DNA from: a virus
Virus record (IMG/VR): IMGVR_UViG_3300035698_014689
Coordinates: 30,887-94,886 of that record
DNA length: 64,000 nt
Reading direction: 5' to 3' (one strand)
Shown here piece after piece: positions 3,450 through 61,341 of the stretch. The position numbers and the translations under genes are program-made. The number at the start of each line of letters is the position of its first letter. Positions within the stretch are counted from its first letter, which is position 1. Below the pieces are notes generated by a model. The model did not search any database, had not been told where the DNA came from, and saw nothing but the letters and a program-made list of their open reading frames with translations.

Positions 3450-3520
3450 TGAGTCCCCCTCACCTAAGTAAAAACACCTACGAACGTACGAGCGGAAGTG
3501 CAATCATGTGCACGCCACAC

Positions 3521-3937
3521 CTATTCAGGAACGAGCTTTTTCGGAAAAGGTTCACGCATCTTCGAGCCCGCACAGACCATCTTGACAAACTCAGCTATTA
3601 TCTTAACTGATTCTGCTGGTGACTCATTCGATCCTGCAATATATACTATGCAGACATTTCCAGCACTGAGATCACTAGAAAACATTCCCCACATTGACTT
3701 CCTTCTTGAGTAAGCGAACATGGCGGGAAATTTCTCCTCCTCCTTATACGGACGCTGAAACAGCAGAGCATTAGCACCCCCACCAGCGACAACCTCGGGA
3801 ATAAATTTATCTGTGAGCGTCACCTTAAAAGCATCCGATGAACCAGCGGCTCCCCACGATTTCTGACCAATTGAACAGCCAGTCAAAAAAATCAAAGCCA
3901 CACTGAATAGAAGCATGAATAAAAATCTCATAAACAC
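3521..3937 (-). CDS. Lipoprotein (possibly lysis/spanin-associated)
   Basis: Hydrophobic signal peptide ending in an LTGC lipobox. Confidence 0.6.
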   Translation of the reverse strand: MFMRFLFMLLFSVALIFLTGCSIGQKSWGAAGSSDAFKVTLTDKFIPEVVAGGGANALLFQRPYKEEEKFPAMFAYSRRKSMWGMFSSDLSAGNVCIVYIAGSNESPAESVKIIAEFVKMVCAGSKMREPFPKKLVPE

Positions 3938-3959
3938 TCCTTCTTTATTTACTTACTAT

Positions 3960-4046
3960 TTAGCGAGGGGGAGGACAACCACCACGTCCTCTACCCGTTC
4001 CTCTTCCACCACCGCCTCTTGGCCCCGTCCCATCTCTGTTCGGCAT
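3960..4046 (-). CDS. 28-aa Gly/Arg-rich microprotein (DUF5320-like)
   Basis: MPNRDGTGPRGGGGRGTGRGRGGCPPPR*, AAGGAG RBS; fills the gap between its neighbours; below the ORF-track cutoff. Confidence 0.7.
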   Translation of the reverse strand: MPNRDGTGPRGGGGRGTGRGRGGCPPPR

Positions 4047-4061
4047 CTCACACACTCCTTT

Positions 4062-4322
4062 TCACGCACAACCGTGATGTCTATCTATCATATCTCTTAT
4101 CAACGGAACACACTGCTCTTTATGCTGGGCGACTTTTAAGTCGAACGTATTATGGAGCTCTTGATCAGTCCTAACGTTCGTCAACTTCGACTTGATTTCC
4201 TCTATATCATCCTTGAGAGGTGTTATCATAAGTTTCACGATGAAAAACGTAGCACCCGAAATCGCTGAGACCAGCATAATTCCAAATGCACCGGCACTGA
4301 AAAACAGACTCCAATCCATCAC
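4062..4322 (-). CDS. Single-TM plus coiled-coil membrane protein (holin-like)
   Basis: N-terminal hydrophobic helix followed by a charged coiled coil. Confidence 0.5.
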   Translation of the reverse strand: MMDWSLFFSAGAFGIMLVSAISGATFFIVKLMITPLKDDIEEIKSKLTNVRTDQELHNTFDLKVAQHKEQCVPLIRDMIDRHHGCA

Positions 4323-4331
4323 GCCCTCCTT

Positions 4332-4679
4332 TTACTCAAAGTCACTCATTGACAACTGATTTCTCCAATAACCAACAGAGGTTATCGCTATCTTGACTCC
4401 TGACGCTACGAGAGCATCAAAATACTGAAGCGGATCATCCATTTCAGGTGTGATGGATTTCGCCGCTGTGATTAACGGCGCGAGTTCATCTAAAGTATAC
4501 ACCTTGTCTGAACCATTACCACCAAGCAAATCACATTCTTCTCCAGTAATCGCATAAGCATCAACAACTATCCGCATACCCTCCTGAGAACGGTGATACC
4601 AAAAATGGAATTCAAGTCGATTCTTGTCATCGGTTTGCAGACTTGTTGGAACCTCTTTCGTCGTTCTGAATTTCAACAT
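4332..4679 (-). CDS. Hypothetical protein (fibre module)
   Basis: 115-aa ORF, tightly packed with neighbours. Confidence 0.55.
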   Translation of the reverse strand: MLKFRTTKEVPTSLQTDDKNRLEFHFWYHRSQEGMRIVVDAYAITGEECDLLGGNGSDKVYTLDELAPLITAAKSITPEMDDPLQYFDALVASGVKIAITSVGYWRNQLSMSDFE

Positions 4680-4680
4680 A

Positions 4681-5148
4681 TCAAACTCCTTTTATTTTAC
4701 GTTTCACCGCATCTACATCCATATCTACAGCTTCGACTGCGGCTACGGTAAGCGGATGTTCCATGTCCAAATCTGTAGTAGCTACCCAGCGTTCAGCGAA
4801 TTTAGCATCTTGCATTAAGACGTCAAATTTAGCACGTTCCACAGGAAGCTCATCAAGTGCTTCAAGAATATCTAACTTGGATAACTTGATCATAGCGTCA
4901 AGTTTTTGCTGTATGGTCAAATGTGAGCCAGCTACTTCATCTATGACCCACTGAATAGATTCAGGATTACGAAATCCCTGTCCTTCATATACCACAAATG
5001 GAAAAGCTGTAGGAATAGGCTGATTAGACAATCTATACTGCAATTGTGCATTAGTATCACCATACCAATCAATTACAAGATTACCTTGACTGAACTGCTC
5101 AACAAAATCTCTGCTTACTGCGTCATATTTATTATGTAAAATTATCAT
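4681..5148 (-). CDS. Hypothetical protein, possible fibre assembly chaperone
   Basis: 155 aa; overlaps the stop of the fibre-like gene. Confidence 0.5.
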   Translation of the reverse strand: MIILHNKYDAVSRDFVEQFSQGNLVIDWYGDTNAQLQYRLSNQPIPTAFPFVVYEGQGFRNPESIQWVIDEVAGSHLTIQQKLDAMIKLSKLDILEALDELPVERAKFDVLMQDAKFAERWVATTDLDMEHPLTVAAVEAVDMDVDAVKRKIKGV

Positions 5149-9522: not shown

Positions 9523-12486
9523 TCATCCCGTCAATGTCCTGAATGCTTTCAATACCGTATCCGTACTTAGTTTCTCCATGCACTCTACTTTACAGTCGCT
9601 CTTAACCAAGTCCTTTTTGACTGATCCCCAGCAGTGGCAATCGTGCTCTGACTCAACGTTCACCAGCGTGTCATAAGAGGACAACCACGCCTTACTGCTT
9701 CCCCCGAATAGTGCCACTGTGGGCTTATCCAAAGCGAAAGCCAGATGAATCGCTAAAGTGTCAACGCTAACAACATACTGCATAGACTCGATATTTTCAA
9801 CCAATTCTTTGAAGTTTTTTGATCTTTTATCCTTCAGACCCCGTATCAAAGGCGTTTTGGCTAATCCTAATTGATGACAGGTGAACCCGTCCGCTTTCAG
9901 TCTCCTCGCTAATTCCAGCCATTTGGACTTGGGCCACTCTTTTATTCGTCGATCAGCATCTTGGTTCATTTGCATGAAGAAGCCAACGCTTTTCTCCAAA
10001 GGCGTGGCGGAAATACGTTTTGGCAGATCAGAGATTGAACCACCCATTCCATTGACTATATGAACCTTCTGCTCCCAGCAACCGTTGTAATCCACTGGAA
10101 TCTCCAAAGAGTCCTGAAGCGGATCAACGGACACCGATACATTATCCAAGAACATCTTGACGATCTCAAAACAGCCTTCACGTGTTTGATAATTTATCTT
10201 GGCTAAAGGGAAAAATTCCTGTGTCTTTTTAACGAGGGCGAAGGACATATAAATATCTCCAGCTCCATACTCACGATGGAAGTTCACCCGCCCTTTTCGA
10301 TAAGCCTCGGGATAAGAATCACCAAGTGTTTTCCGTATCAATTGGCGATACTTCGGAATGACAGAATCAATCGTACATTCCGCCATAACTTTTCTTTGCA
10401 GTTTGATGCCGTCAGTCTTCCTTATACGTGTGATTTCACTCCGTAAGGAGTCCAAGACAGGCATCCCAGCTTGCGACTCCACAAACCTCATTTCCTTCTC
10501 GAAAAAGATGGGAAGCGCACCAACTTTTGTGGCGATGACAGGAACGCCAAAATATCCAGCCTCAAGACAGACCATAGGAAAGCCCTCTTCCCTTGACAAA
10601 ACAACGAGTGCGTCAATGCTTTTAAAGAACGTTCCAATATTGCGGCTTCTCGGCAGAAATTTAACTCTATCCGCATAACCTCCATCCTTGGCTATATTCT
10701 CAAGTAAAGTCAGGGAAATTTCATCGGTCTCCATTCCCTGCACGACAAGATTGCAATCAAGTGCACTCATGTTCTCTACAAGCCAACGGACGTTTTTATT
10801 GTAATCAAATCGTCCTAAGAAGCCTATCGTCGTGCCTTTCTCAAACATCTTTTTACTCTCGCCTGAAAAGGCCGTTACTGGCAGAGGATTCGGAATAAAG
10901 ATAGACTCGGGAATCTTCTCACTTATAACAGGGGACACACAGGTCGTGGAGTCGATAACGTCTCTCCACTTCTCAGTGAATTTCACGCCCTCCTCGTCAT
11001 AGTGAGTATGAACTACCCTGATTGATAAGGGTCTGAGATTTCTCATTGTCTTCAATGAGATGGGAATCGCTTCATTCATACCATACCACAGAACAGCATC
11101 CTGCTTCTCGAACTCATCAGTTGCCAGTTCAGAGCCACCTTTGAAGATAACGTTGTCAAAACGACTCAGGAGCTCCTCCTTGATTGACATCTGTTTTCTT
11201 GGTTCGATCGAATCAAAGGCGATCACGGTAACATCAAAGAACTTCTTCAGGCCCTCGGCGATCGTCATCATGCAGGTCTCCCCTCCACCTAGAACCATAT
11301 GAGGGAAAACGACAGCTATCTTCTGAACCCGCTTAATAAAATTCAAATCTCTTTGGCGACTACTCTTCAAAGGCTGGCCCTTACGATCTTGGAACCACTG
11401 AGACTCGTGCTCAATAGGCCCGACCGTTCCCTTAATGGCTTGAACCACATCCTGAGGACTTATCGACAGCATACAGGAGTAACCGTTATTGCAATCGGAA
11501 GGCCTCCTCCTTCGACAACCCACACAATCAAAGCTGGACTTCAGCGGATGAACAGTAGCGTACCTTCCAGCAACAGCATGAGGACTTGAAGGGCCAAACA
11601 AAGCAATCGTCTCCAGTCCGATCATTCCAGCAAGATGCAGAAAACAGCTATCAACGCAGACGAAATAATTGCAGACAAACATTAAACGAACCTGCTCAAG
11701 AACGCTGAAACCAGTGCAGTCCACAACACCCTCTAATCCGAGACTATCCTGACCGAAAACAAGCACTTCGAAATCACTCCTCTTAACAATCTCTATGAAC
11801 GCCCTCCAATTTTCCGCTGACCAGTCTCTGTGCAAAGCGGAGGATTTCGGATGTATTCCAATCACTTTTCTCTTTCCAAAATTGTGAGCTATCTCCAGCG
11901 TCTTGTCCAATGTTCTAGGCATGTTTATAGGAACCTTGGCGACTGGACAGTTATCAAGCCCTACCATCTGATACGCTCGTTCGTAATAATCGTGACCTGT
12001 GATTGTTTTATCCGTCTCAATCATAAAATCGGACAAGTCCAAAATCATATCAAACTGATCTTGGAAACGCACGTCGTTAGTTCGCTGTATGTCAACGAAT
12101 TCATCGACAAAGGGGAATAATGGGGTGAAGGGTATAAAACTCTCACAAACGGCTAATACGACTCTGCATTCGACCTTTTTCAGGTATCGTACAACAGAGG
12201 TCACAATCAGAGTGTCTCCAATCCCACCAGCATTCTTAACGAGGATCGTCATCTTATGCCAATTTTTTGGTAAGGTTCTAAACACGTCCATAGGAGGCTT
12301 CGAGAATCCCTCAAGAAGTGTTTCCCCTTCAGAGGCTGGCTCGATAACTTCAATGAATTTACCTGTGAGTAAAAGCTTTCTTCCCTCGGGGGAACTGACC
12401 TCAGTGGGCTCCGCATCGTCCAAACTGAGAACCTGCTTGGTGAAAGGCGTAGTATATCCTGATGCTCCAACTAGACGAATTAACAT
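9523..12486 (-). CDS. Triple-domain glycosyltransferase (GT9-GT4-GT9) with a short N-terminal YqbF-like domain
   Basis: GT9 #1: GGIGD, RDWSAENW, VDSCFLHLA, LFGPS. GT4: LGGGE, GFLGRF...KN, EEGFPMVCLEA. GT9 #2: GAGD, KEWP...W, VDTLAIHLA, LFGGS. Confidence 0.9.
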   Translation of the reverse strand: MLIRLVGASGYTTPFTKQVLSLDDAEPTEVSSPEGRKLLLTGKFIEVIEPASEGETLLEGFSKPPMDVFRTLPKNWHKMTILVKNAGGIGDTLIVTSVVRYLKKVECRVVLAVCESFIPFTPLFPFVDEFVDIQRTNDVRFQDQFDMILDLSDFMIETDKTITGHDYYERAYQMVGLDNCPVAKVPINMPRTLDKTLEIAHNFGKRKVIGIHPKSSALHRDWSAENWRAFIEIVKRSDFEVLVFGQDSLGLEGVVDCTGFSVLEQVRLMFVCNYFVCVDSCFLHLAGMIGLETIALFGPSSPHAVAGRYATVHPLKSSFDCVGCRRRRPSDCNNGYSCMLSISPQDVVQAIKGTVGPIEHESQWFQDRKGQPLKSSRQRDLNFIKRVQKIAVVFPHMVLGGGETCMMTIAEGLKKFFDVTVIAFDSIEPRKQMSIKEELLSRFDNVIFKGGSELATDEFEKQDAVLWYGMNEAIPISLKTMRNLRPLSIRVVHTHYDEEGVKFTEKWRDVIDSTTCVSPVISEKIPESIFIPNPLPVTAFSGESKKMFEKGTTIGFLGRFDYNKNVRWLVENMSALDCNLVVQGMETDEISLTLLENIAKDGGYADRVKFLPRSRNIGTFFKSIDALVVLSREEGFPMVCLEAGYFGVPVIATKVGALPIFFEKEMRFVESQAGMPVLDSLRSEITRIRKTDGIKLQRKVMAECTIDSVIPKYRQLIRKTLGDSYPEAYRKGRVNFHREYGAGDIYMSFALVKKTQEFFPLAKINYQTREGCFEIVKMFLDNVSVSVDPLQDSLEIPVDYNGCWEQKVHIVNGMGGSISDLPKRISATPLEKSVGFFMQMNQDADRRIKEWPKSKWLELARRLKADGFTCHQLGLAKTPLIRGLKDKRSKNFKELVENIESMQYVVSVDTLAIHLAFALDKPTVALFGGSSKAWLSSYDTLVNVESEHDCHCWGSVKKDLVKSDCKVECMEKLSTDTVLKAFRTLTG

Positions 12487-13668: not shown

Positions 13669-15645
13669 TTAAAAAGGCCACGTATCCGAGAAGACATCAT
13701 TCTTGGATTTCGAAACGACTGGAGGAGTGTTATCCTCTTCCCGTGCGTCATCACCAACAACGGTTTTCTTCATCTCCTGCATCTCCTCAGTCACATCTTG
13801 CAGACCTTTAGAGAGCGTTGTCAACGCACCCAAGAAAGCCCCATGTTCTTGCCCTGCGGGAGTTCCCAGAGATTTCACCAACTCAGTCGCTGGCACATCC
13901 TCGGTCACTTCTTTCTTGGCATCCACTGATTTCGTCTCGGGCTCAGGGATAGGCTCAGTCTTCGTTTCCGTTTTCAATTTCGTATCTGTTTCCTTACTGA
14001 TGACTTCGGGAGTTTCCCCAGCTTCCTTCATCGCAGTCGTGTTAGAATCCCTTCCACCAGTATTAGCGGGGAGAGTCTGACCTGACGGAGCAGGAGCTGA
14101 CGGTTTCTCTTCTAAAAGGGCATCTTCCTTTTTAAGAGTCAAACTTTCATCCATAAGACCCGCTGAGTTCGCCATTTTAGCAATCTCGGGTTTTATGGCA
14201 TCAAGTACTTGAGCGGCGACTGTCTTACCCATTTCAGTAAGAACGGTTTGATGATCAGCGGCTTTGATCTGCGCCTGCTCTGTCGTTAGAATCACACAAA
14301 GCTCTTTCACGAGATTCTGAAGGTCAGGAACCTCATTTGGTGCATCCCAGACAGCCTCTTCAAAAGCACTGAAAGATTTGAAGATTTCTGCTACACGCGA
14401 CCACTTGGTGCTATTCATTATATCCAACTGCTCAGTCACGCCTTTCGCCACGGGCTCCTTAGCAGGTACGTCATCCGTTTTTTCCGCAGAACCCTCGGCC
14501 TCTTTTTTCTCGGACTCCTCAATGGGCTCTTTTTTTGGTTTTTCCGCATCCTTCGTTTCAGGAGAGGTTTTCGTCTCTTTTTTAGCCGCTGTTTCCTTGG
14601 CGGGAGTTGCCTCAGTTTCAGTCTCAGCGGATTTCGTTTCAGGAGTCGTTACTGCTTCTTTTACCGTCACAGAAGATTCCTGACCGTCCTTCGTCTTTTT
14701 GTTCGCCATTTCTTGACTCCTTTGTTCTAACATTTCCAAATCCTGTAAAAACTTAATCCTTTCGGAGAACTCTCCGTGGGATTTCATCATACCATCCGTG
14801 ATTTCTTTCCCTACTATTAACTGTACTCCCGTCGCCATTTGCATGGATAACAGAGGGCACTCCTCATCAAAACACTCTTTCTTCAAATTAGTGTGAACCA
14901 ATTCCCCGCCAGTTTTATCGACAGCGACGGACGAAGAAAAAGAATGATCAGCCAGCCATGTCTTCGCAGTTGCCTGCTCAAAAATAGTCGGCGAAAATCT
15001 GATCTGATGTATACTCAACAAGTCGATTGACGTTTGCTTCTCATATTTCATTAAGTCCGAACCGAACTGAACGCCCTTGGCAATTTCAAAAGTAGAGGCG
15101 AAATTGTCAGGAATATGAACTAGGGAACACTCCCACAGGTCAATCGTCTTAGTTACGAATTTTTCCACCCCTCCAATAACAACTTTGGCTATTGAAGCGA
15201 GCCCTCTCCATGAGAACGTATTCAGAGTACCATTCTCAACCTCTTTCCATACCTCGGGAATAGTAACTTGGGCTTTGACCCAAAGGCCCCGACTTCCCAC
15301 TACAACGTCAGGACTTATTTCTTTGGAAAAAGTATCAATCGGAGAGCCGTCTTCTAAAGATATTCCCCACACGTCATCGGAGTCAATATCAACTATCTTT
15401 GCGACGGACGCTTGAGTGACAAGGCCTATGTTCACGTCGTTACCATTTTCATCTATCCACTTCTTGTGATTTCTTTGCAGTTGCGGATTGACCATAAAGC
15501 GGTCTAATAGGAAAGATTCAGGAGCAATTAAGTCCTGAGAACGGTCTGCGTTATTCATAGAAGCAAATCCTTTGACGATGTTGTTTCCTTCATCATCAAC
15601 GGCTTTTTGCATGATCGCATGGAACGTGAACGGTTGTCTAATCAT
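13669..15645 (-). CDS. Prohead protease fused to a long acidic scaffold-like region
   Basis: VKGFAS...DRSQD, NH, TFSW and ECSLV HK97-type protease motifs, then E/K/T/P-rich low complexity. Confidence 0.88.
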   Translation of the reverse strand: MIRQPFTFHAIMQKAVDDEGNNIVKGFASMNNADRSQDLIAPESFLLDRFMVNPQLQRNHKKWIDENGNDVNIGLVTQASVAKIVDIDSDDVWGISLEDGSPIDTFSKEISPDVVVGSRGLWVKAQVTIPEVWKEVENGTLNTFSWRGLASIAKVVIGGVEKFVTKTIDLWECSLVHIPDNFASTFEIAKGVQFGSDLMKYEKQTSIDLLSIHQIRFSPTIFEQATAKTWLADHSFSSSVAVDKTGGELVHTNLKKECFDEECPLLSMQMATGVQLIVGKEITDGMMKSHGEFSERIKFLQDLEMLEQRSQEMANKKTKDGQESSVTVKEAVTTPETKSAETETEATPAKETAAKKETKTSPETKDAEKPKKEPIEESEKKEAEGSAEKTDDVPAKEPVAKGVTEQLDIMNSTKWSRVAEIFKSFSAFEEAVWDAPNEVPDLQNLVKELCVILTTEQAQIKAADHQTVLTEMGKTVAAQVLDAIKPEIAKMANSAGLMDESLTLKKEDALLEEKPSAPAPSGQTLPANTGGRDSNTTAMKEAGETPEVISKETDTKLKTETKTEPIPEPETKSVDAKKEVTEDVPATELVKSLGTPAGQEHGAFLGALTTLSKGLQDVTEEMQEMKKTVVGDDAREEDNTPPVVSKSKNDVFSDTWPF

Positions 15646-15700: not shown

Positions 15701-15829
15701 TCGCCTCAATAAAAATACTGTAATTGCACTTTGAACAAAAACAAGCGGAAAAATGAAAAAACCTTGAAATCAGTGCAACCAAGTGCACTTCTGGTATCAT
15801 GTCTAAAGTCAAAACAAAACCAAATTCTT

Positions 15830-16045
15830 TCACCTCTTTCCAAATAATGCGTGTCTTTTAGCGGTGACTTCCATATCAAAATCAATATAAGAAGTCAACG
15901 TCCAATAATCAAAAATAGCTCGCAATTCACTGACAATCTCTTTTATACTCAATTCATAATAAACACCTCGATACTCAGGAATCATTCTATGAACAAAAAA
16001 ATCTCTTTCCTCCCCTTTTTCAGGCTTTCTCCAATCATTTAACAT
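15830..16045 (-). CDS. Hypothetical protein
   Basis: 71 aa; overlaps the MuF stop codon. Confidence 0.55.
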   Translation of the reverse strand: MLNDWRKPEKGEERDFFVHRMIPEYRGVYYELSIKEIVSELRAIFDYWTLTSYIDFDMEVTAKRHALFGKR

Positions 16046-18740
16046 ATAAAACCTCCTTAACTACCCATTCTTTCTCTGGAAATGGGGTTGGAAATACTCG
16101 ATGGCTAATCAAAACATCATCTAGTTTGACCTCTACATTATATTTAAAAATCTTCTCCCCTTTCTGAGCTACTTTAGCCGCTTGAGTAGAACCACCACTA
16201 AATTCAGAGACTCCTATTCCTCCTACCTTCTTAACTACTAAACCTAAATGGCCCTCCGTATCTGCTCTACCAAGTATTCCAATATCTCCATACATCTGTG
16301 AAAATACTTTCTGCGATGTATCCTGCATCAACGATGCCGCTAATCTGAATTTCTCACCATGCGCACCATCAAGTGCCGCTTCAAAAATCTTCAAAGAACT
16401 ATGACTGGCATCATCACCAAAATAATTCTGCAAATTAAAACTCTTAGCATAATTCGTCGGATGAACCTTATACGCCAATCCTTCAGGAACCCACGAAGCT
16501 GTTACATTATAATCATTCCCATATACAGTCCACTCCCCTTTAAAACCTTCAATATAATCGTCCCATCCTTTCTGTTTCGCATAAGTAGACGCTTCAGCTC
16601 TTGTTGCAAAGGATTTCGATTGCAAATGAGGATATGAAACATTCTCCGCACGTACCATTTTATCTATATCAGCAGTCCCATTAAGCAAATCGAATTCAGT
16701 GCCTACACCCAATTTTGATGCCTCTTCTCTCATCCCTGTTCTAAGGGCCTGAGCCGCACTATAAGATTGCTCCTCTGTTTCAGCCAAAGCCGTCTTATCA
16801 ATCAATCCATCCAATGGCGAAACCACAGGAATCATAATTCCACCTGCTGGCCCACCAGTCCACGGCTGTAAAACAAGAGCCGGATCACTTAAATCAGGCT
16901 CTTCCACACATCTGCAATTATGACTTATTACACCATTAGCAATATAACTAAAATTATCTTCAACATGAAAGTTATAGAGGGACTGAACCCTAGATGTTTT
17001 CTTATATTCAATACTTTTAATAGGAACCTCAATAAACTCATAAGCTCCTTCATGGTTCAAAGATAATAAAGACTGCTCATCTGATTCAATAAATTCATTT
17101 TTCCTCCCATATAACCTATGTACAATCACATGGTCGGGGAATGCACTTAAAATCTCCACATCTCTTTTATGTTGCTTCTCTTTATCCTGATGCCAATACC
17201 ATCCATCTATCTCTATAAACCTCTTTTCGGATGGAACATAAAAATCTACAAATCTATTCCCTACAGAAAACTGTTCCTGAAAAACAACACCGCTCTTAAC
17301 CAAGGAGTCACGAAACAAAACCTCAATTTTCGTGGGGCCTTTCTTATTCCAACATGCGGGCTTACCTATTTTCCATAAATCAGAGGCTTTCATATAACCC
17401 CCTTCTCCATACTTCTCAACCAAACATTTGCGAGCACGTAAAGTTATACCATCAGCGTCTCTTACTCCTGAAGCATATTCACTCTTTAATTGCTCAGTCG
17501 TTTTCTTAGATGTATTCTTTCGATGCTCAGGGTCCTTCCATTGATTAGAAGATGAGACATGACTTGAACAACTACGAGAACAATACTTGCGATAGTAGGG
17601 CATTTTCTTTCCACATAAAGGGCATCTACTTGCTCTCACATAAAGGACATCCTCAAGAGTCAGATTCTCAGCATTAACCCATCCCCCAGAAGTCAAGAAT
17701 GGATGCTCCTCAGTAACAACTAAACTATTAGAAGCATACTTATTCTTCTCTCCAAATTTAATCCTCACAATTGGACGACCACTAGGAATCTTATACTTTC
17801 CTAAATAAGTCTCAAGAACCCTCTTATATTCTCCTGAATGAGTTAATACCAAATTTCCTACTTGAATATCCTTAATCTGCTTCTTCCCTTCTGAAGTCCA
17901 AATACCTACCTGAGGGTCAATGAAGCAATTTATTGCATCCGGTCCGTCTCCTACGTGCATCGCACCACTAGGATAAGATTCGGCAATTGGAATAAAACCC
18001 ACGCTCTCATTGGCCTCGTGAGCGGGTCTGACACGCAAATCTCCCACAGTGAACCAACGTTTTCTCTCCACTCCAGAACGTTTGAACATCTCATAACGAG
18101 CCGTTCCAATAGCTGTCTGCACCTCTGTCTGCACAATCTTATACGCCCTTGCTGGATCAATACCCATCACCTCGATGACTTTCATCGTATCATAAACAGT
18201 ATCACCGTTCTTAAAAATACCAGTGGCAATCTTCGCCTGAGCATTGTGAACCATTGTGTCAGTTGTGATCTTTGCCATCTCCAAAGCTCGTTGATCTAAT
18301 TGCAGAATCAGCTCCTCGTCGGTCAGATCGAAAACGTAGGTGACTGGATCAGCCTTGCGTAGAACCCTCAAAGACTCAAAGGAGGAATCAATGCCAAATT
18401 CGAAGGCTTCCTCGTTCATTTCTCTCAAGAACTCTTTTACAGGCGTTGTGTCGGGATAATCAAAGGTCTTAAAGATGTCCTCGGCAAATTTCAGCCCTGC
18501 CTGCCTACGACTGGTTGGATTACGTATAACAGTGGACTCTTTATACGCCTCAAAGAACGCACGCTGTATTTTCAGCTGAAGTAATTGATCTGTGATAGGT
18601 TTCCACCACGAGGCGTATGTCTTCATAGTGGGAGGAATATAAGACCGTTCAAGCGTCATCCTCTCACCGCCAGTAGCAACCTTACTCAGCAAATAAAAAT
18701 GAATCTGCCGACGTATCTCATATTTCTCGGTACTATTCAT
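16035..18740 (-). CDS. Head morphogenesis protein (MuF/SPP1 gp7 family) with an intein and a C-terminal extension
   Basis: IVQTE, KRWFTVGDLRVRPAH and IN|CRC after intein removal. Confidence 0.9.
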   Translation of the reverse strand: MNSTEKYEIRRQIHFYLLSKVATGGERMTLERSYIPPTMKTYASWWKPITDQLLQLKIQRAFFEAYKESTVIRNPTSRRQAGLKFAEDIFKTFDYPDTTPVKEFLREMNEEAFEFGIDSSFESLRVLRKADPVTYVFDLTDEELILQLDQRALEMAKITTDTMVHNAQAKIATGIFKNGDTVYDTMKVIEVMGIDPARAYKIVQTEVQTAIGTARYEMFKRSGVERKRWFTVGDLRVRPAHEANESVGFIPIAESYPSGAMHVGDGPDAINCFIDPQVGIWTSEGKKQIKDIQVGNLVLTHSGEYKRVLETYLGKYKIPSGRPIVRIKFGEKNKYASNSLVVTEEHPFLTSGGWVNAENLTLEDVLYVRASRCPLCGKKMPYYRKYCSRSCSSHVSSSNQWKDPEHRKNTSKKTTEQLKSEYASGVRDADGITLRARKCLVEKYGEGGYMKASDLWKIGKPACWNKKGPTKIEVLFRDSLVKSGVVFQEQFSVGNRFVDFYVPSEKRFIEIDGWYWHQDKEKQHKRDVEILSAFPDHVIVHRLYGRKNEFIESDEQSLLSLNHEGAYEFIEVPIKSIEYKKTSRVQSLYNFHVEDNFSYIANGVISHNCRCVEEPDLSDPALVLQPWTGGPAGGIMIPVVSPLDGLIDKTALAETEEQSYSAAQALRTGMREEASKLGVGTEFDLLNGTADIDKMVRAENVSYPHLQSKSFATRAEASTYAKQKGWDDYIEGFKGEWTVYGNDYNVTASWVPEGLAYKVHPTNYAKSFNLQNYFGDDASHSSLKIFEAALDGAHGEKFRLAASLMQDTSQKVFSQMYGDIGILGRADTEGHLGLVVKKVGGIGVSEFSGGSTQAAKVAQKGEKIFKYNVEVKLDDVLISHRVFPTPFPEKEWVVKEVLYVK
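16917..17927 (-). mobile_element. Intein (337 aa) in MuF carrying a DUF559/Vsr-like endonuclease
   Basis: Starts CFIDP; block B VTEEHPF; ends ANGVISHN followed by C; internal FVDFY...IEIDGWYWH. Confidence 0.9.
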
Positions 18741-36317: not shown

Positions 36318-36365
36318 CTGATTCACCTCTTTACATATAATACACTTGAAAACACTGGAAACAAA

Positions 36366-38054: not shown

Positions 38055-38421
38055 AATGCTCCTTCATTTCCTCAAATAAATTCAGGGGGATCACCGCGTA
38101 CTCTTTCTCAATGTTTTTGACCTCATTAAACCTGAGAACAATGACAGGCTCTTTCCCCGCACCATTCGCTTCATTGAGGAGCTTCCGCAACATCGCCACG
38201 TCGATCTTAATAGAACAGGCATCGGTTGACTTGAGATCGTAGAGAAAATCTTTCGTTTTGAAATCCCCCTTATGACCTGCAATCGCACCCGAACACGGGG
38301 TCTGAATAGCAGAGCAAAGCTTCGCCACCCTCTTCTCATTCCTGTTCGCCTTACGCTTGATACTTGGTCTGTTGCTGAAGTCATAGTGATTCACAATTTC
38401 TCCTCTAGGACGTACTCCCAC
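38044..38421 (-). CDS. Holliday junction resolvase-like nuclease
   Basis: E..VAK...PCSGA....KGD......DLKST motif. Confidence 0.7.
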   Translation of the reverse strand: MGVRPRGEIVNHYDFSNRPSIKRKANRNEKRVAKLCSAIQTPCSGAIAGHKGDFKTKDFLYDLKSTDACSIKIDVAMLRKLLNEANGAGKEPVIVLRFNEVKNIEKEYAVIPLNLFEEMKEHYDN

Positions 38422-45943: not shown

Positions 45944-47815
45944 CTACTTAGCTCCTCCCCAGTTATCGCAGACCGTCAAATCGGCATTTATCGGAACCGA
46001 TAAGTCTGGAGTTGTATAACGCATCTTCTCCAACAGAATCTCGGACACTTCGGGAGTGAACTCCTTCCTACATTCTATGATGACCTCATCGTGTACTTCA
46101 TTGCTAGGCCAAACACCATCAAGCCAAACACCCGCTGAAACCATGTCATCTCTAAATGCCTTTTCAGCAAGCATCAAATAGTGTGAACCAGCCGACTGAA
46201 TCGGAAAGTTCACGAACATATTCAGAGAATGCTTTTTACTCATCCTGATCGACTTGCTTGGGATACGTCTGATCCTTCCAAAAATATCAGAGACTTGACC
46301 AGCTGAATACATCAAATCCTCCATCTTAATATGCCAGCGTTTCACGCCTTGATATTTTCTGAAAAATTTATTGAGAATATCCTCCCACTCGTCCTCCGTA
46401 TACGTCCCGAACTGTTGCTTCATTTTCCAAGCGGTAGCGAGATATATAGCGGCAAAGTTCACATTCTTGGCGGCGGCATCCACACCAGCAGAAGGACTAC
46501 GGGGCATTCCCGTAACATCTGCTGTCATTTGGTGAATATCCTTACCATGCCAAAACCCCTTGAATTCGGGGTCTTTAATTACCTGTTCATTTCCCTCCTC
46601 CCCGCAATTAGGACAGTGTGTGAGGTAAACAGTATTATCGCCTTTAGAATCGCATACATGGCATTCCCAACTGGTGTACGCTGATCTCATCTCCGCATCC
46701 TGAGAGACGTGAGCCATCAACCGCAACTCCATCTGTGAAAGGTCAACAACTATCAAATCCATTCCTTTCGGTGCTTCCACACAACTTCTGATATTCAATT
46801 CAGGGTCTTTGATCACAGGCTGATTCTGAAAATTTGGTTCTCTCTGACGTTTCCTTCCAGTAACACTTGTCAAATAAACAGAGGGATGAATACGACTTTC
46901 CATACTTTCACGAGCCCTCAAAGTATTCGGCTCCAAATAAGTGCCAATCATCTTCGCGGCATTTCGATAATTGATCAAATTACCTATCTCGGGGTATTTG
47001 ACGGCAAGCACCTCGACCACTTCTTTATTCAATTGAAATTGTTTTGTCTTTTCAGTGCGTGGAACTCCTGACGAATCCCAACGCATATCCTCGAACATAC
47101 GTTTTCCTAATTGCTTATTAGAATTGAGATTTATATCATCTCCTAAAATCAACTGGAGTTTTGTCTTAGCATCCTCCCTGAAAACCTTGTACTTTTCAAT
47201 CAATTCCTCAGACCTTGGAACAGACCACAGGCAACCACGCTCTTCCTGTTCGCAAGCATATCTCAAACCGTGCATGTAAATCTTATAAAAGATTTCTTCC
47301 AAGTTGTCCTTGATCATACGTGGCTGAAGCCAGTCCAGCCAGTAACGAAGAGTCCAAAAACAGTCCTCTTTTCCATAGTCAAAAAACTCTTTGCTGTGAC
47401 GACCAAAGGCTGACGTTTCTTTGTATGTAGCCATTTGATGATTAAAAACGTCTTTTATACGAGCCTTCAAACCAATACGACTTTCAATTATATTCTCATC
47501 AACGAGATTAGTGGCAACCATCGTATCGGCTAAGTTGACGGGATATTTATCAATCAGTTTTTCCTTCCGCAATCCACGTAAATCAAACTTGATGTTATGG
47601 CCGACAATTCTACGATCATCTATCAGAATGCAATCAAGTGCACAACGTATCTCATCTCGATCCTCAGTGTAGGAGGAAAGAATCTTGGAGTCTTTTGGGT
47701 TTTTCGCGGCAAATCCACATCCCCAAAACTCCCAGTCATCTTGATGAATATGCGGATGATTGCTTTCTATATCTAAAACAATGTCGCCCTGTATATTGAG
47801 TATCTTTTCCAGCAT
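45944..47815 (-). CDS. polA: Family A DNA polymerase with 3'-5' exonuclease
   Basis: DIES, GHNIKFD, DLSQMELR (motif A), KNVNF...Y (motif B) and VHDE (motif C). Confidence 0.95.
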   Translation of the reverse strand: MLEKILNIQGDIVLDIESNHPHIHQDDWEFWGCGFAAKNPKDSKILSSYTEDRDEIRCALDCILIDDRRIVGHNIKFDLRGLRKEKLIDKYPVNLADTMVATNLVDENIIESRIGLKARIKDVFNHQMATYKETSAFGRHSKEFFDYGKEDCFWTLRYWLDWLQPRMIKDNLEEIFYKIYMHGLRYACEQEERGCLWSVPRSEELIEKYKVFREDAKTKLQLILGDDINLNSNKQLGKRMFEDMRWDSSGVPRTEKTKQFQLNKEVVEVLAVKYPEIGNLINYRNAAKMIGTYLEPNTLRARESMESRIHPSVYLTSVTGRKRQREPNFQNQPVIKDPELNIRSCVEAPKGMDLIVVDLSQMELRLMAHVSQDAEMRSAYTSWECHVCDSKGDNTVYLTHCPNCGEEGNEQVIKDPEFKGFWHGKDIHQMTADVTGMPRSPSAGVDAAAKNVNFAAIYLATAWKMKQQFGTYTEDEWEDILNKFFRKYQGVKRWHIKMEDLMYSAGQVSDIFGRIRRIPSKSIRMSKKHSLNMFVNFPIQSAGSHYLMLAEKAFRDDMVSAGVWLDGVWPSNEVHDEVIIECRKEFTPEVSEILLEKMRYTTPDLSVPINADLTVCDNWGGAK

Positions 47816-54598: not shown

Positions 54599-56666
54599 CT
54601 ATACCTCCTGAAACGTGCATTCATGTGCACTCTTATCAGTGCGGAATTCTATGAAATCAGGAAACCTGAATTTCTTCCCATCCCACCCGTAATGCTTGAA
54701 CTCCACGACTCTTCCAAGCAACGCATCTTTTCTCACCTCATCGTCCATCTTACAACGAAAACCTTCAGGAAGCCCCACCCAGCAGACAGTGACGCTTCTT
54801 TTCTCTTGGAGTTGAACCAGTTTCACAGTGCCAACCCTCCCTGTTTTCGTGACTTTTCCCAGCTTGTGCTTCTTCTCCTCGTGAAAATCAGCAATGAAAG
54901 CATCACCTGTGTCCTCTAGTTTGATCTTCCAACCGAGCATACCACTATATTTCGTATCACCCAGTTTCAGAACATAGCCCTCCTTCGTAACGCCCTCCAA
55001 GCTCTTTAAAATCGCATTCAAGTCCTCAAGTGTGAACACCTCCACAGTGTCATAACTTTCAACGCACTCCAATTTCAGCATTCCCTCGTCCCTGAATTCA
55101 CGGATCATGTCAGTATATAACGCCTTTCTGTCCAATAGGTCAAAGTAACGAATATCCTCCCCGTTGAACATGAGCACATCATACACCACGAATTTCTTCG
55201 GAGTGTCCGACCTTGTGACATCTGAAGACGTGGAGTCGTCACAGTCAGCGCAAAGCTCCCCATCGTAAACGATTGACTCATCAGGATATAAATTGAGATA
55301 CCACTGCTGGTATTCTACCATCCAAGGCTCGGGAGTTCGTACCACGAATTGCTTATCTTTACTGGCTTCAACCCCTTTGGTTTTTCCCTCCTTGGAACGG
55401 GAAACCAACATCAAGCCATAGACTCCTAATTGCAGGGAGTAACGACAATTATGAACCAGTGCATTATTGGCGAAAAAGCACTCTGTTTTCTTCACAGAAA
55501 TATTCCACCTTCTTTCTATCCTAGTTAATCTTTCTATCTTTACAACTTCACCGTATTTAATACTTGAGGCTTTAAAAATCACAAGTGCTTTTCGTTTCTT
55601 TAACCAATAGTGAATAGCAGACTTACTCACACCATATTTTCTGCCCAATTCCGACATTACCATCCATTTCCCTTCGGATAAAAGTCTCTCATAATCTAAA
55701 ATCATTTGATTAACATCAAAATCAATTTTTCTGTGACTTGTCGCTAACCTTTTAAGATACGCCTCTCTTCCCTCAATCTGTGCACTTCTTAAATACTCCT
55801 GAACCAAAGTCTCCTTCTTTCTATGACAACTTGGACAAAGAGATTCCAAATTCTCAAGACTATTATCTTGAGATATACCAAAAGGCGTTTTATGATGCAC
55901 CACTAATAAACAATCCGAAGCAAAAACAATCAACACACTTGTTTCCATCTCTGTCCAAAGCTCTTCCACGTTGAACAAGCCAATCCACACCTCTATAATC
56001 TAAACGCCCACCCCTCCACATCGAGTTCTTTTTTCCTGAAAATTTTGCACGTCTTACTCTCGTATTATGCCCCTCTTTAACTGTTCTAGTGCGGATTTTG
56101 TATCTGCTTAGGGCATTAACAACAGCCTGACGACTGCAACCAATTAACGTTGCCACATCATCTAAAGACTCTTGCTTTCTGATGTAATGAGCAACCAAAA
56201 ATGCCTCGTTTAAACGAGGATATTTTTTCCTTCTTGTTGACTCTTTAATCGGGTCTAATAAAACAGGTCTATTCAACATTTCCTCAGCCTCAATCCATTT
56301 TCCTTCACTATAAAAGGGGTGTTGAGGTGTGCAAATTATTTTTGACACCTCTCCCTCCGACTCAATTGTCAACTCGATCCATTCAGAAGAAAGGCCGTTG
56401 TCAAACACCTTTGCTACTTGAGCATTTACTAATCTCCTCCTTTTCTTGTCAAATGATTTGATCCAGTCACCCTCCTGAATATCACGTATACTTTTATGTG
56501 TACAATTAGACATTAAGATAGGCGTATCCTCTACAAAACAACCATCCTCTTTCCTCTCCCTGACTACTTCCCCTTTGATAGGGCCTTTCTCCAACAGAGC
56601 GATCAAGTGGTCAGTGGGACGTAATCTACCCAGTGTTATTTGATTTTTATTCCTCCAGTCCATCAT
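54599..56666 (-). CDS. ATP-dependent DNA ligase with an intein (1-nt frameshift inside the intein)
   Basis: ERKEDG|CR (motif I), YDGEL, YDVL, EGYVLK and KIK motifs; two ORFs join at the A5 run at 55922-55926. Confidence 0.9.
55448..56540 (-). mobile_element. Ligase intein (about 364 aa, HNH) inserted directly after KxDG
   Basis: CFVED...CTPQHPF...CVDC/VHHK...NLESLCPSCH...ALVHN followed by C; length 1093 nt = 3n+1. Confidence 0.88.
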
Positions 56667-57837: not shown

Positions 57838-57932
57838 TTCACGCTCCTTTTTTTAGTTGTTAAACCGCAATCTCTTCTCTTTCTTCATCAACTACTTTAT
57901 AACAATCATAACCATACGTCTGATCCCAACCG

Positions 57933-58487: not shown

Positions 58488-58497
58488 GATATAGATA

Positions 58498-59018: not shown

Positions 59019-59144
59019 TTGAACCTCCTGTGTATAATGAAACATACCACGTTCAACTTTTTCAGTCAAATACCCAAAACTGAATAGACTTATACCAATT
59101 GTCAACACTATATACATACTTTCTCCGTGCAATTATGTGCACTT

Positions 59145-59366: not shown

Positions 59367-59400
59367 GCCAGTTTCCTCCTATTTAAAAACACTATTTTTC

Positions 59401-59739
59401 TCAGACATTGCAGGATTGCAGGTATGCCCTTTCTAATTTTCCCCTGTCGGAGACTGCTAGAATCTGTGACCAGTATTTCGTGATTTTCTTTTTCAAAAAC
59501 AGAATCTGCTTGGAAGAGAGATAACCACGATCCAAATACTGGGAAGCCAACGAAGATAAAAATTCAGCGTCGAAAGCTGTGAAACCCATTTCATTATGTT
59601 CAACAGTTGTCTCGGAGGTTTTCTCAACATCCGTCTGAAAAGAATATATCACCAGCAGAGCCCTCAGAGCCCACTTCTCATTTTCAGCCAGCATGTTCCT
59701 AACAAATCCCTTCAAAGCCTTTTTTGTGATCTTAGCCAT
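59401..59739 (-). CDS. Conserved phage hypothetical protein
   Basis: QT..EK....T.EHN..GF...DAEFL motif; strong RBS. Confidence 0.65.
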   Translation of the reverse strand: MAKITKKALKGFVRNMLAENEKWALRALLVIYSFQTDVEKTSETTVEHNEMGFTAFDAEFLSSLASQYLDRGYLSSKQILFLKKKITKYWSQILAVSDRGKLERAYLQSCNV

Positions 59740-59752
59740 AACCTATTTTCTC

Positions 59753-59902
59753 CTATTTAGTGACAACAACAAAAAGCCTGCCAGTCTCATGGGAAACAAC
59801 CATCAATGTACCTGTTCTTTCACTCAAAGTTTCAGTGACCTCAAGTCTTCCGTCTTTGAGTGCCTTTTCAAAATCTTCTTGGTTTTCAATTCTAATCCCC
59901 AT
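59753..59902 (-). CDS. 49-aa hypothetical early protein
   Basis: MGIRIENQEDFEKALKDG...; AGGAGG RBS; below the ORF-track cutoff. Confidence 0.55.
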   Translation of the reverse strand: MGIRIENQEDFEKALKDGRLEVTETLSERTGTLMVVSHETGRLFVVVTK

Positions 59903-59949
59903 TTCAATTTCCTCCTATTTAAAACACATTTCACATTCAACATGGATAG

Positions 59950-59978
59950 AACATACAGGCATGGACGTATATTACAAG
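59950..59978 (-). promoter_or_regulatory. Putative promoter
   Basis: CTTGTA-17 nt-TATGTT. Confidence 0.6.
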
Positions 59979-60088
59979 TACTTAAACAAAGAAAAATCGG
60001 AGTTTTTTTCAAGACTTGCTAAAACGGGTTGCAATGCTATCTTATTACTCGTTCGTGTATTAGAGAGAAGGGAAACAACAACGGAGGC

Positions 60089-60670
60089 ATGATGATGGAC
60101 TACTATCACAGCATCGGCAAAAACATCGGAGAAGGTTGGAATCTCGTGATTCTCGGGCTTCTAAAACAGTCGGCAGTATTGAAATTCAAAGGAGCGAGCA
60201 TACTCGACCTCGGCTGTGCGGAAGGGGGCTATTGCAAAGAGGCCCTTGAGAAAGGTGCGAAAACCGTCATCGGCTACGAGCAAAATCCAGTTATGATTGA
60301 TCGAATGAATGACTGGCTCCTCCGCAAAAGCAAAAGCAATAAGAGAAAAATGGACTTGCGACAAGAGAATCTCAATGATTCGAAGGTCAGAGAGTCTCTT
60401 CCTGATGCGGACATTGTTTTCTTTCTGAATCTGCATCACCATTTGGAAGCACCAATCGAGATGCTTGAGATTCTCTGCGACAAGTGCGAAGGTGTTCTCG
60501 TGACGAATGGTTATCAGATTGAATCACAAACCGCACCCGCTCCCACCAAAGGCCGTCAAAAGCTGGGAACGAATTACGTGATTGAGATTCTACATAACAA
60601 GGGACTTGATGTGATCAACCTTGGACAATACCGTGAAGGTCGTGACTTAATCGTCGGGTACAAGAAATAA
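60089..60670 (+). CDS. Class I SAM-dependent methyltransferase
   Basis: ILDLGCAEG (motif I) and DIVFFLNLHHHL; GGAGG RBS. Confidence 0.85.
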   Translation: MMMDYYHSIGKNIGEGWNLVILGLLKQSAVLKFKGASILDLGCAEGGYCKEALEKGAKTVIGYEQNPVMIDRMNDWLLRKSKSNKRKMDLRQENLNDSKVRESLPDADIVFFLNLHHHLEAPIEMLEILCDKCEGVLVTNGYQIESQTAPAPTKGRQKLGTNYVIEILHNKGLDVINLGQYREGRDLIVGYKK

Positions 60671-61299
60671 TGAGCTACTTCGTACTAGGTCTAACAAGTA
60701 CTGGTAAAAGCACCTTGGCAGAAAACATGTCGGGGTGCTTTTATTTTCCCTCCGAAATTTTATATCTGCTGACAACCAAACAAACAGAACTCTTTCCGCG
60801 CATCCTCCAGATCGTCACAGAAAAGCCCGAGAATTTTCGACCCTTGGCGTACTTCTGCAAAAGACCACTGAGGAAATACTTCAAAGAGCTCAGGAAACTG
60901 CCTGACCGCTCGGTGATCGAATGGGATAGGTTTCAGGAAATGCTGGACGAAATAAACAGTATGCTCTCCCCAGTGATACTAGAGGGCGAGATTCTATCAC
61001 ATGGGAAAATCTTCGCTACCATACAAAAGAGCGTCGAAAATAAATGCTTCCTGCTTGAGTTGCCTTTAGAAGTGATTTGGCAGAGATACCAAGAGCGCTA
61101 TCCTGCAATGGAAAAATATCCCAACTCCCACGAAATGACGTTGGCTAAAAACCACCTTGCGAATATCTGTCAGGAAAAGAACATTCCCAGCGGTGACTAT
61201 AAAAGAATCAAGTATCTGATCCAGTCATCCATAAACAAATTCACGAAACTGGAAACGGCCGCCACGAAGCTCCTTCAGGAATTACAAGAGTGCAATTGA
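60670..61299 (+). CDS. P-loop kinase-like protein
   Basis: N-terminal VLGLTSTGKST, VILEG and R...R lid; TAATG-coupled to the methyltransferase. Confidence 0.7.
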   Translation: MSYFVLGLTSTGKSTLAENMSGCFYFPSEILYLLTTKQTELFPRILQIVTEKPENFRPLAYFCKRPLRKYFKELRKLPDRSVIEWDRFQEMLDEINSMLSPVILEGEILSHGKIFATIQKSVENKCFLLELPLEVIWQRYQERYPAMEKYPNSHEMTLAKNHLANICQEKNIPSGDYKRIKYLIQSSINKFTKLETAATKLLQELQECN

Positions 61300-61341
61300 A
61301 TGCACGCTCTCTTCACACCCCCTCCACTAATATCGAAGCCC

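Follow-up and report, generated by a model that had tools for sequence, protein, structure and literature searches.

The array and its sequence

The window analysed here is a 64,000-nucleotide stretch of viral DNA (positions 30,887 to 94,886 of IMG/VR record IMGVR_UViG_3300035698_014689). It carries 13 copies of TGCA-N6-TGCA, every one of them at the position assigned to it in an earlier note made from the sequence alone. Six copies lie at gene junctions and seven within genes, which agrees with the roughly equal division described in that note.

3498-3513: site 1, GTGCAATCATGTGCAC (plus strand), 25.0 bits; junction of ORF 3003-3503 and ORF 3521-3937
10751-10766: site 2, codon phase 1, within the gene for a 987-aa triple glycosyltransferase
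15773-15788: site 3, intergenic, between ORF 13669-15645 and ORF 15830-16045
25685-25700: site 4, phase 0, within a 385-aa gene
28046-28061: site 5, phase 0, within a 505-aa gene; sole copy in the opposite orientation
31153-31168: site 6, phase 2, within a 126-aa ORF
34207-34222: site 7, in the 400-bp intergenic region 5' of the candidate-binder operon, adjoining a sigma-70-like -35 hexamer
34998-35013: site 8, phase 2, within a 196-aa ORF, followed by an extra half-site repeat (GCACAATTGCAC)
40957-40972: site 9, phase 1, within the intein-bearing RecA gene
44292-44307: possible degenerate copy, weak (GTGCGATTAACTGCAC; one core mismatch, 15.7 bits)
47628-47643: site 10, phase 1, within the family-A DNA polymerase gene
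54615-54630: site 11, in the final 32 nt of a 463-aa gene, 5 nt 5' of the SD of the next gene
59127-59142: site 12, intergenic, with GGAG and ATG directly after it
61290-61305: site 13, 3' end of plus-strand ORF 60670-61299

One hundred dinucleotide-preserving shuffles of the window gave 0.96 copies on average and never more than 3, in line with the earlier estimate of about one site by chance. When the distance between the two TGCA words was varied from 0 to 20 nucleotides, a single peak appeared at six, with 13 copies compared with 0–3 elsewhere. Shuffling synonymous codons in all called genes reduced the count from 13 to 5.5 ± 1.2 (maximum 9, n = 300); intergenic DNA was left unshuffled, and the leftover copies were mostly those at junctions. 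Both of these tests had been proposed in the earlier note, which had predicted the single spike. The seven clearly intragenic copies represent all three codon phases, and a weight-matrix scan was bimodal, with 13 sites scoring at least 22 bits and the next best scoring 15.7 bits. Because the excess is confined to N6, intragenic copies are lost in synonymous shuffles, all three phases occur and the scores are bimodal, we conclude that the enrichment is real and that the copies are under selection at the DNA level. The whole 94,886-bp record contains 21 copies, about one per 4.6 kb.

The sites are sharply defined 16-mers with the near-palindromic coding-strand consensus GTGCA(C/A)-TYRA-TTGCAC. 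The central step is pyrimidine–purine in nearly every copy of every genome examined, and uncompensated substitutions occur at the outer pair (positions 1 and 16) as well as at positions 6 and 11. The spacer WTYRWG, previously described as conserved, is exact in 8 of 13 copies and deviates in the other 5. The strand bias reported with it is real in this genome, where 15 of the 19 asymmetric sites have their better half-site on one and the same side, but it is specific to the lineage. Among the relatives examined only the fragment G002 shares it (14 of 17), and orientation was unbiased in G011 (28:35), G006 (26:19) and W01 (5:3). The 15:4 bias of this genome is not accounted for by a symmetric dimer.

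Copies recur at a mean distance of 4.8 kb in the window (CV 0.53), close to the 5 kb noted earlier. Over the whole record the spacing was marginally more even than random (CV 0.69, P = 0.07), and evenness beyond random was found in W01 (CV 0.40), W02 (0.48) and G011 (0.56; each P < 2e-4).

Distribution of the array and changes of specificity

The same word is repeated in phages of Vibrio (V-YDF132, 33 copies), Stenotrophomonas (DLP3, 35), Rhodobacter (RcZahn, 28) and Rhizobium (RHph_TM16, 18) and on many IMG/VR contigs, and the carriers span 43–63% GC. Carrier genomes held 10–55 copies, with a spike at N6 only, compared with 0–2 copies in controls. Unrelated contigs retrieved by a single exact match (G005, G007–G010) held 1–2 copies each. 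The window is syntenic with V-YDF132, DLP3, RcZahn and three IMG/VR genomes (G006, G004 and G003) in the replication module, capsid and portal, with protein identities of 20–52%. RHph_TM16 has in common with it a 342-aa protein, described below, and the RecA-to-RuvC neighbourhood of that protein. The array is thus a hallmark of a deep clade of 80–100 kb siphophages. We found no paper describing it, cultured relatives included.

Two relatives use different words. G011 contains 94 copies of TCCA-N6-TGGA and 4 of the TGCA type, a genome-wide switch, and G013 contains 8 copies of TTGAACC-YR-GGTTCAA. Specificity has therefore changed genome-wide at least twice in the clade. These substitutions point firmly to a reader encoded by the phage, and comparative sequence evidence lends good support to the earlier proposal that the sites bind a phage protein.

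A candidate reader with a predicted ParB/Noc-like domain

Two genes of the window encode candidate partners of the sites, listed here with two features next to the second:

23782-24558, minus strand: ParB N-domain protein of 258 aa containing GGEHRW, its gene overlapping terS; a second candidate, as partner or as binder, and the weaker of the two
32806-33834, minus strand: 342-aa candidate binder (phrog_17202, without a Pfam family)
33967-34119, minus strand: putative short ORF of 50 codons, preceded by an SD, between the promoter-like element and the binder gene
34179-34206, minus strand: TTGACT-16 nt-TATTTT, promoter-like by consensus match alone, adjoining site 7 on its downstream side

The 342-aa protein is the best candidate reader, on account of its predicted fold, an altered helix in G011 and a site at its own promoter. 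In the AF2 model, residues 109–240 adopt the fold of the ParB/Spo0J/Noc HTH DNA-binding domain, matching Spo0J–parS (4umk; VIA Z 10.3, rmsd 3.5, 115 aligned), ParB–parS (6t1f; Z 9.4) and Noc–NBS (6y93; Z 8.9). The top 15 rows of the comparison were chromosomal ParB and Noc proteins and the Raf1 alpha-domain, and the next row had a Z of 3.9. Residues 1–100 were modelled with low confidence and no secondary structure, and C-terminal helices follow the domain. Searches of PDB sequences with phmmer and with a profile of 28 homologs returned no ParB match; the predicted relationship is at the level of the fold only, and for a helical domain a Z of about 10 falls short of overwhelming. The protein has no Pfam match and lacks the N-terminal ParB/Srx CTPase domain (GERRxRA box), and therefore would not form a sliding clamp by itself.

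Homologs of this protein were present in every motif-bearing genome tested for one: in all six relatives whose ORFs were compared, in G011 and, by tblastn, in RHph_TM16. Among the cultured phages the ortholog is UOX39973.1 in V-YDF132, gp062 in DLP3 and gp66 in RcZahn. In a further 22 IMG/VR loci with a homolog, totalling 349 kb, 76 sites were counted, a frequency roughly 15-fold that of other spacings. The predicted recognition helix carries an otherwise invariant RRKAYY, which is replaced by KSMAHY in G011 only. Because G013 retains RKAYY although its motif differs, this correlation amounts to one clear case. The link between protein and array is also not absolute, as homologs occur in G014 and G012, where the array is weak or missing (2 sites per 48 kb and 6 per 132 kb, respectively).

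In 11 of 25 genomes or loci, the 400 nt upstream of the gene for the 342-aa protein include a site. A promoter-like sequence was readable there in seven lineages, with the site ending 5–8 nt before the -35 hexamer, and in the window this distance is 0 nt. Site 7 is the only copy in the window at such a sequence. A strong -35/-10 pair begins 6–9 nt after the end of 11 of 33 sites in V-YDF132 (at 6–7 nt for 10 sites), and 9 of 55 sites in G006 are positioned likewise, these promoters being consensus matches rather than mapped starts. Because site 7 adjoins the sigma-70-like promoter of the operon encoding it, the 342-aa protein probably regulates its own synthesis.

Proposed function and alternatives

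We favour, with moderate confidence, an explanation in which a dimer of the 342-aa ParB/Noc-type HTH protein of the phage docks at each 16-bp palindrome, and the protein would combine autoregulation with a chromosome-level task. A single monomer would recognise each half-site, (G/T)TGCA(A/C), with a flexible central pyrimidine–purine step between the two. Through the site at its operon promoter the protein would control its own synthesis. The remaining copies, at kilobase intervals along the chromosome, would probably serve a chromosome-level task rather than gene-by-gene control, and might mark, organise or tether phage DNA or silence it globally. We propose such a task because the copies occur chromosome-wide, in junctions and genes and in any reading frame. 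The mode of working would resemble that of KorB with the OB operators of RK2 or of Noc with NBS sites. We infer binding by the 342-aa protein, autoregulation and the purpose of the array. A more speculative and rather unlikely extension is a split ParB, in which the 342-aa protein, as a domain-only reader, barcodes the chromosome at regular intervals and recruits the terminase-linked ParB N-domain protein, a CTPase or nuclease. The virus might in this way tell its own DNA from that of the host when packaging, protecting or compartmenting it, and barcode and reader would evolve together and change from lineage to lineage (TGCA, TCCA, GAAC).

The parS-like role is the closest of the three that the earlier note had offered, but its reader is likely to be the 342-aa protein, listed there as an HTH protein, and not the ParB protein named for it. 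That 258-aa protein does have a true ParB/Srx N-domain, with Foldseek matches to Noc, KorB and ParB (E ~5e-8 over ~140 columns), and it is conserved in G006, G011, W01, W02 and W03. A spacing of a few kilobases would also suit spreading from many parS-like loading sites, whether the 258-aa protein acted by itself or supplied the CTPase half of a pair with the 342-aa protein. We nevertheless consider such loading unlikely, as a profile search found no match to the 258-aa protein in G003 or in G004, the latter a complete genome with terminal repeats in which the motif is present. The conserved segment after its N-domain is unchanged in G011 despite the different motif there, and a full ParB DNA-binding domain is not evident. 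TerS, also suggested as a reader, is an unlikely one, since it is not conserved across the clade that retains the motif. We give a similarly low probability to binding by another phage protein, for instance a small HTH protein whose divergence keeps it from being traced, with the 342-aa gene merely adjoining a site. Most small ORFs of the window had no family match, scans against Pfam or PHROGs covered ~30 of ~128 ORFs, and G012 and G014 pair a homolog of the 342-aa protein with hardly any array, all of which leaves room for such a binder. Against it, no further unexplained protein turned up in all of the relatives compared, and the 342-aa protein is favoured by its fold, by the change of its helix in G011 and by the site beside its promoter.

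Stoperator-like roadblocks, at which a repressor bound to oriented sites would halt RNA polymerase along a single transcribed strand, were another role offered earlier and fit poorly. Nearly all genes lie on one strand, several sites are just 5' of ribosome-binding sites, and the better half-site favours one side here and in G002, but that bias is missing in G011, G006 and W01. The sites are palindromic and stoperators asymmetric, a contrast discussed in PMC4351075, and 7 of 13 copies lie within genes, polymerase and RecA among them. No repressor, integrase or lysogeny gene was recognised among the ~30 ORFs scanned, and we regard roadblocks as quite improbable. A hairpin in RNA or single-stranded DNA, acting in processing, stability or priming, could have a stem of 5–6 bp and a loop of 4–6 nt; many copies lie between genes, and the G011 switch is formally compensatory. 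We hold this to be very unlikely, as stem energies are low (-2.5 to -6.5 kcal/mol), variation at positions 1/16 and 6/11 is uncompensated, conservation extends to the sequence and not just to pairing, and many copies in V-YDF132 and G006 lie 5' of the -35 hexamer, outside the transcript that they accompany. Equally little credence can be given to reading by a host factor or to targets of restriction–modification or DNA modification. The word, with its 6-bp spacer, resembles a bipartite type I site, and the resistance of DLP3 DNA to 15 restriction enzymes suggests modified DNA in the clade (PMC7326821). Yet phages avoid restriction targets, and here there is 13-fold enrichment with a conserved spacer and YR centre. 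One word serves phages of Vibrio, Stenotrophomonas, Rhodobacter and Rhizobium at 43–63% GC, and sites of close architecture in other letters are found in G011 and G013, a pattern that suits a co-evolving phage protein rather than a common host factor. None of our findings supported the suggested mark for modification or packaging.

Comparison with known systems

Dispersed palindromes with ParB-family readers are already known from plasmid RK2 (KorB) and the Bacillus chromosome (Noc). KorB and its 12 OB operators (TTTAGCSGCTAAA) on the IncP plasmid RK2 share with the proposed system a ParB-family domain and a short palindrome found replicon-wide (PMC11790492, PMC13584720, PMC13768133). In both, the regulator's own operon would be among the targets. 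Among the OB operators, some stand immediately 5' of a -35 hexamer and others at a distance from any promoter. Unlike KorB, the candidate lacks an N-terminal CTPase domain and on its own would not be expected to slide as a clamp. A KorA/TrbA-like or ParA/IncC partner was not recognised, and no ParA-type Walker ATPase was found among the ~30 window ORFs scanned. The phages carry 21–94 sites, many in coding sequence, compared with 12 on RK2, and the replicon is a phage in whose scanned ORFs no lysogeny gene was recognised. Noc of Bacillus subtilis (6y93, 7ol9, 7nfu; PMC7383237) likewise pairs a ParB-derived HTH with a dispersed palindrome of ~14–16 bp and a chromosome-level task, and a few residues in or near its recognition helix can change specificity. 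By contrast, Noc has a CTPase domain and a membrane-targeting helix, neither of which was found in the 342-aa protein, and its sites are far less dense.

The stoperators of Cluster A mycobacteriophages are also many copies of a short operator along a phage genome, but each is asymmetric and follows the direction of transcription, most lie between genes, and the protein that binds them is the immunity repressor of a temperate phage (PMC4351075). Closer in form are the 17-bp dyad repeats (TGTTCGGNNNCCGAACA) of Cluster O phages such as Corndog (PMC4351075, PMC6439249), in which a siphophage that is not evidently temperate carries more than 30 palindrome copies, about one-third of them in genes and most off promoters (PMC4351075). 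The array described here belongs to the same descriptive class, with tens of dyad-symmetric copies, intergenic and intragenic and mostly off promoters. The sequence and the host phylum differ, and tblastn of the 342-aa protein against a phage collection returned no Mycobacterium phage. The Cluster O authors predicted a dimeric DNA-binding protein, and binder and function were not given there (PMC4351075). Phage-wide dyad repeats have lacked an explanation since that 2015 paper, and here an array is tied to a named candidate protein, the pair being conserved across a large clade of 80–100 kb siphophages, with those of Vibrio, Stenotrophomonas, Rhodobacter and Rhizobium among them. Function can be tested directly in the cultured members V-YDF132, DLP3 and RcZahn. 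Should the array serve to organise, mark or silence the chromosome of the phage, it would represent a widespread and undescribed layer of phage biology, and a natural system in which a DNA-binding protein and scores of its sites change specificity together.

Organization of the palindromic array in the window

An earlier note on this DNA had claimed 13 TGCA-N6-TGCA copies of a 16-bp operator-like motif, against about one expected by chance. We found all 13 at the exact coordinates claimed, and dinucleotide-preserving shuffles (n = 100) yielded a mean of 0.96 copies and a maximum of 3. Enrichment was confined to the predicted spacing: when TGCA-Nk-TGCA was counted for k = 0–20, k = 6 gave 13 copies and every other spacing gave 0–3. 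The tetramer TGCA alone occurs at its expected frequency (229 versus 228). The whole 94,886-bp record, which IMG/VR classes as linear and about 79% complete, contains 21 copies. The coding-strand consensus of the sites is GTGCA(C/A)-TYRA-TTGCAC, and information content falls to background directly beyond its 16 bases. Nearly all copies, in all genomes, have a YR step at the central dinucleotide. In a weight-matrix scan the 13 sites scored at least 22 bits, and the best other position (44292) scored 15.7.

Gene junctions account for six of the 13 copies, and a Shine-Dalgarno sequence follows several of them at a distance of 5–20 nt. The remaining seven are intragenic and occupy all three codon phases; the genes that contain them include a polymerase, an intein-bearing RecA and a triple glycosyltransferase. 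When synonymous codons were shuffled inside genes, a check suggested by the same note, the total fell from 13 to 5.5 ± 1.2; essentially only the junction copies, which this shuffling leaves intact, remained. The use of all three phases and the loss of copies on synonymous shuffling indicate that it is the DNA word, and not an encoded peptide motif, that is maintained.

Features of the window
16035–18740: MuF-like head protein gene with intein-like insertion
18742–21528: portal gene with intein-like insertion
23226–24558: ParB N-domain gene (23782–24558, minus strand, 258 aa), overlapping a 190-aa ORF with an N-terminal HTH (probable small terminase), directly upstream of TerL
32806–33834, minus strand: gene for a 342-aa protein, candidate binder
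34998–35025: site 8 and, directly after it, a partial extra copy (GCACAATTGCAC), giving three consecutive TGCAC half-sites
35294–36497: GIY-YIG homing-endonuclease-like gene and HNH gene, between Cas4-like nuclease and resolvase-like genes
38391–41429: RecA gene with intein-like insertion
43129–45705: SNF2 helicase gene with intein-like insertion

The intein-like insertions in these four large genes carry LAGLIDADG or HNH endonuclease domains. This intein load is unusually high, with virion-assembly genes among the carriers, and the GIY-YIG-like and HNH genes are additional mobile nucleases of the replication module. Nearly all genes (81 of the 87 called) are on the minus strand, and a strong GC skew extends uniformly across the window (plus strand G 16.7%, C 26.0%). 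The half-site asymmetry of the motif, with C at position 6 on a C-poor coding strand, runs contrary to this composition.

Conservation of the array in related phages

To find relatives, we scanned IMG/VR for the exact consensus and counted the pattern in the matched records; cultured relatives were reached by tblastn with the 342-aa protein.

TGCA-N6-TGCA copies in related genomes
G006 (85 kb, complete, 63% GC): 55
G002 (16-kb fragment): 22
G001: 16
G003: 10
G004 (100 kb, complete): 10
Vibrio phage V-YDF132: 33, most of them TTGCAATTAATTGCAA
Stenotrophomonas phage DLP3: 35
Rhodobacter phage RcZahn: 28
Rhizobium phage RHph_TM16: 18

The five motif-dense IMG/VR relatives again showed a peak at N6 only, and the chance-matched contigs G005 and G007–G010 had one or two copies each. 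A further 22 IMG/VR loci with a homologue of the 342-aa protein together held 76 copies in 349 kb, about 15 times the rate of neighbouring spacings. All-ORF BLAST of the IMG/VR relatives revealed that they have in common with the window the capsid, the portal, the 342-aa protein and a syntenic replication and recombination module (DnaB, loader, primase, a 219-aa protein, PolA, SNF2 helicase, RecA, Cas4-like nuclease and RuvC), and the records of the four cultured phages have the same gene order. Megablast of 10 kb of the window against cultured phages and a TerL peptide scan of IMG/VR returned no close relative, and no cultured phage has a TerL more than 24% identical to that of the window. 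The nearest relatives have 57% identity. In V-YDF132 (CV 0.40), DLP3 (0.48), G011 (0.56) and others, the sites are spaced significantly more evenly than chance predicts; in the window's genome this holds only marginally (CV 0.69, P = 0.07). The array is a real, selected, clade-wide feature. Separately, the assigned 'direct terminal repeats' of G002 (7–20 and 16437–16450), a record estimated at 28% complete, may simply be two copies of the palindrome at its ends.

Switches of motif specificity

Two relatives carry the same architecture with different letters. In G011 (102,290 bp, 42% GC), TCCA-N6-TGGA occurs 94 times, with the peak once more at N6 alone, and TGCA-type copies number only four. 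Its consensus, CTCCAAT-YR-ATTGGAG, replaces the TGCA word and, at about one per 1.1 kb, forms the densest array among the genomes compared. G013 (33% GC) has a third specificity, with eight copies of TTGAACC-YR-GGTTCAA (for example, at 59458) in an unchanged 16-bp architecture; one copy lies 5 nt ahead of a TTGACA hexamer. De novo palindrome scans found no alternative array in G012 and G014, which encode homologues of the 342-aa protein and have weak or no TGCA arrays. A constant architecture with changing letters is the pattern predicted by a co-evolving, phage-encoded reader. A common host factor as the reader was already unlikely from the range of hosts and GC contents, and is further excluded by the two switches. 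Conservation across hosts and GC contents, together with these switches, supports the earlier proposal that the copies are binding sites for a phage protein, and the array very probably provides the docking sites of such a protein.

Among the roles offered for such sites were transcriptional roadblocks resembling mycobacteriophage stoperators. These fit in part: the gene layout on one strand agrees, as does a half-site bias of 15:4 in the window's genome and 14:3 in G002, but the sites here are palindromic and the bias is absent elsewhere in the clade, both of which count against this role. A hairpin function is improbable, given stems of only −2.5 to −6.5 kcal/mol and uncompensated variation at the outer positions. 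A rival reading, that the motif is a restriction or modification target, would lead one to expect avoidance, not enrichment, and no conservation of the spacer, yet the spacer is conserved. DLP3 DNA resists 15 restriction enzymes (PMC7326821).

A candidate reader of the array

The putative docking sites are probably read by the ParB-DBD-like product of 32806–33834. Its orthologues in cultured phages are UOX39973.1 (V-YDF132), gp062 (DLP3) and gp66 (RcZahn). This 342-aa protein was present in every motif-bearing genome with testable ORFs (six BLAST relatives, G011 and RHph_TM16; the count leaves out the fragment G002). It belongs to no Pfam family, and neither phmmer nor profile searches linked its sequence to solved ParB structures. 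An AlphaFold2 model was confident at residues 110–290, and residues 109–240 of the model aligned to the DNA-binding domains of Spo0J–parS (Z 10.3), Caulobacter ParB–parS (9.4) and Noc–NBS (8.9). Foldseek alone gave only E ~0.2; the clear ranking came from a second look with VIA, in which the best 15 rows were all chromosomal ParB or Noc proteins except for the Raf1 alpha-domain, and the next row had Z 3.9. The predicted recognition helix begins with the protein's most conserved stretch, RRKAYY, which is KSMAHY in G011 alone; the G013 change (WSKAK to WTSLR) falls in the second conserved segment. Additionally, of 25 genomes or loci, 11 have a site at most 400 nt upstream of the 342-aa gene, and in seven lineages this site ends 5–8 nt ahead of a −35-like hexamer. 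In the window, site 7 directly adjoins TTGACT-16 nt-TATTTT, which is followed by a 50-codon ORF and then the 342-aa gene. Its presence, its ParB/Noc-like predicted fold and top structural matches, its altered conserved segments and the site at its own gene make this protein the best candidate.

The earlier note had listed this HTH protein as a possible binder alongside the ParB protein (23782–24558) and TerS, which we now favour less. The former has a true ParB N-domain with a GGEHRW motif and matches Noc and KorB by Foldseek (E ~5e-8). A profile search recovered it from neither G003 nor the complete genome G004, and in G011, despite the different motif there, the part that follows the N-domain has not changed. 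In RcZahn its orthologue occupies bases 1–933, the very beginning of the record. Complex prediction for the 342-aa and ParB N-domain proteins returned 'no answer' with a null score, which counts neither way. TerS has an HTH and lacks BLAST-detectable orthologues across the clade, and was rejected as the binder.

Promoter coupling and proposed role of the array

Promoter function was rejected as a general role in the window's genome, where only one site has a −35/−10 match above background; because the motif directly adjoins ribosome-binding sites there, a downstream promoter has no room. In V-YDF132, 11 of 33 sites end 6–9 nt ahead of a near-consensus −35/−10 pair (10 of them at 6–7 nt), and G006 likewise shows strong coupling (9 of 55 sites). 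It is absent, the binder's own promoter excepted, from the window's genome, DLP3, RcZahn and G011. About 12 of the V-YDF132 sites (ON075462.1; for example, 14937, 41559 and 79474) sit in a longer repeated cassette, in which about 20 bp of conserved sequence precede the palindrome and a near-consensus sigma-70 promoter follows it. These cassettes resemble a group of early promoters under common control.

All members share a dense, fairly even array that spans the chromosome without regard to gene boundaries, together with a site at the binder gene itself. The array may therefore serve both autoregulation of the binder and a chromosome-level task. The 342-aa protein has no CTPase domain and so may act as a static dimer; alternatively, it may work with the separately encoded ParB N-domain protein.

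An exact-sequence literature search for the motif returned no relevant paper, and neither the DLP3 nor the RcZahn genome paper mentions it. Among published phage features, the closest counterpart is the 17-bp dyad repeat of Cluster O mycobacteriophages, which has more than 30 copies, one-third of them intragenic, and no assigned function (PMC4351075). In its possible combination of autoregulation with a chromosome-level role, the array can be likened to KorB and its OB operators in RK2, and to Noc and its NBS sites.
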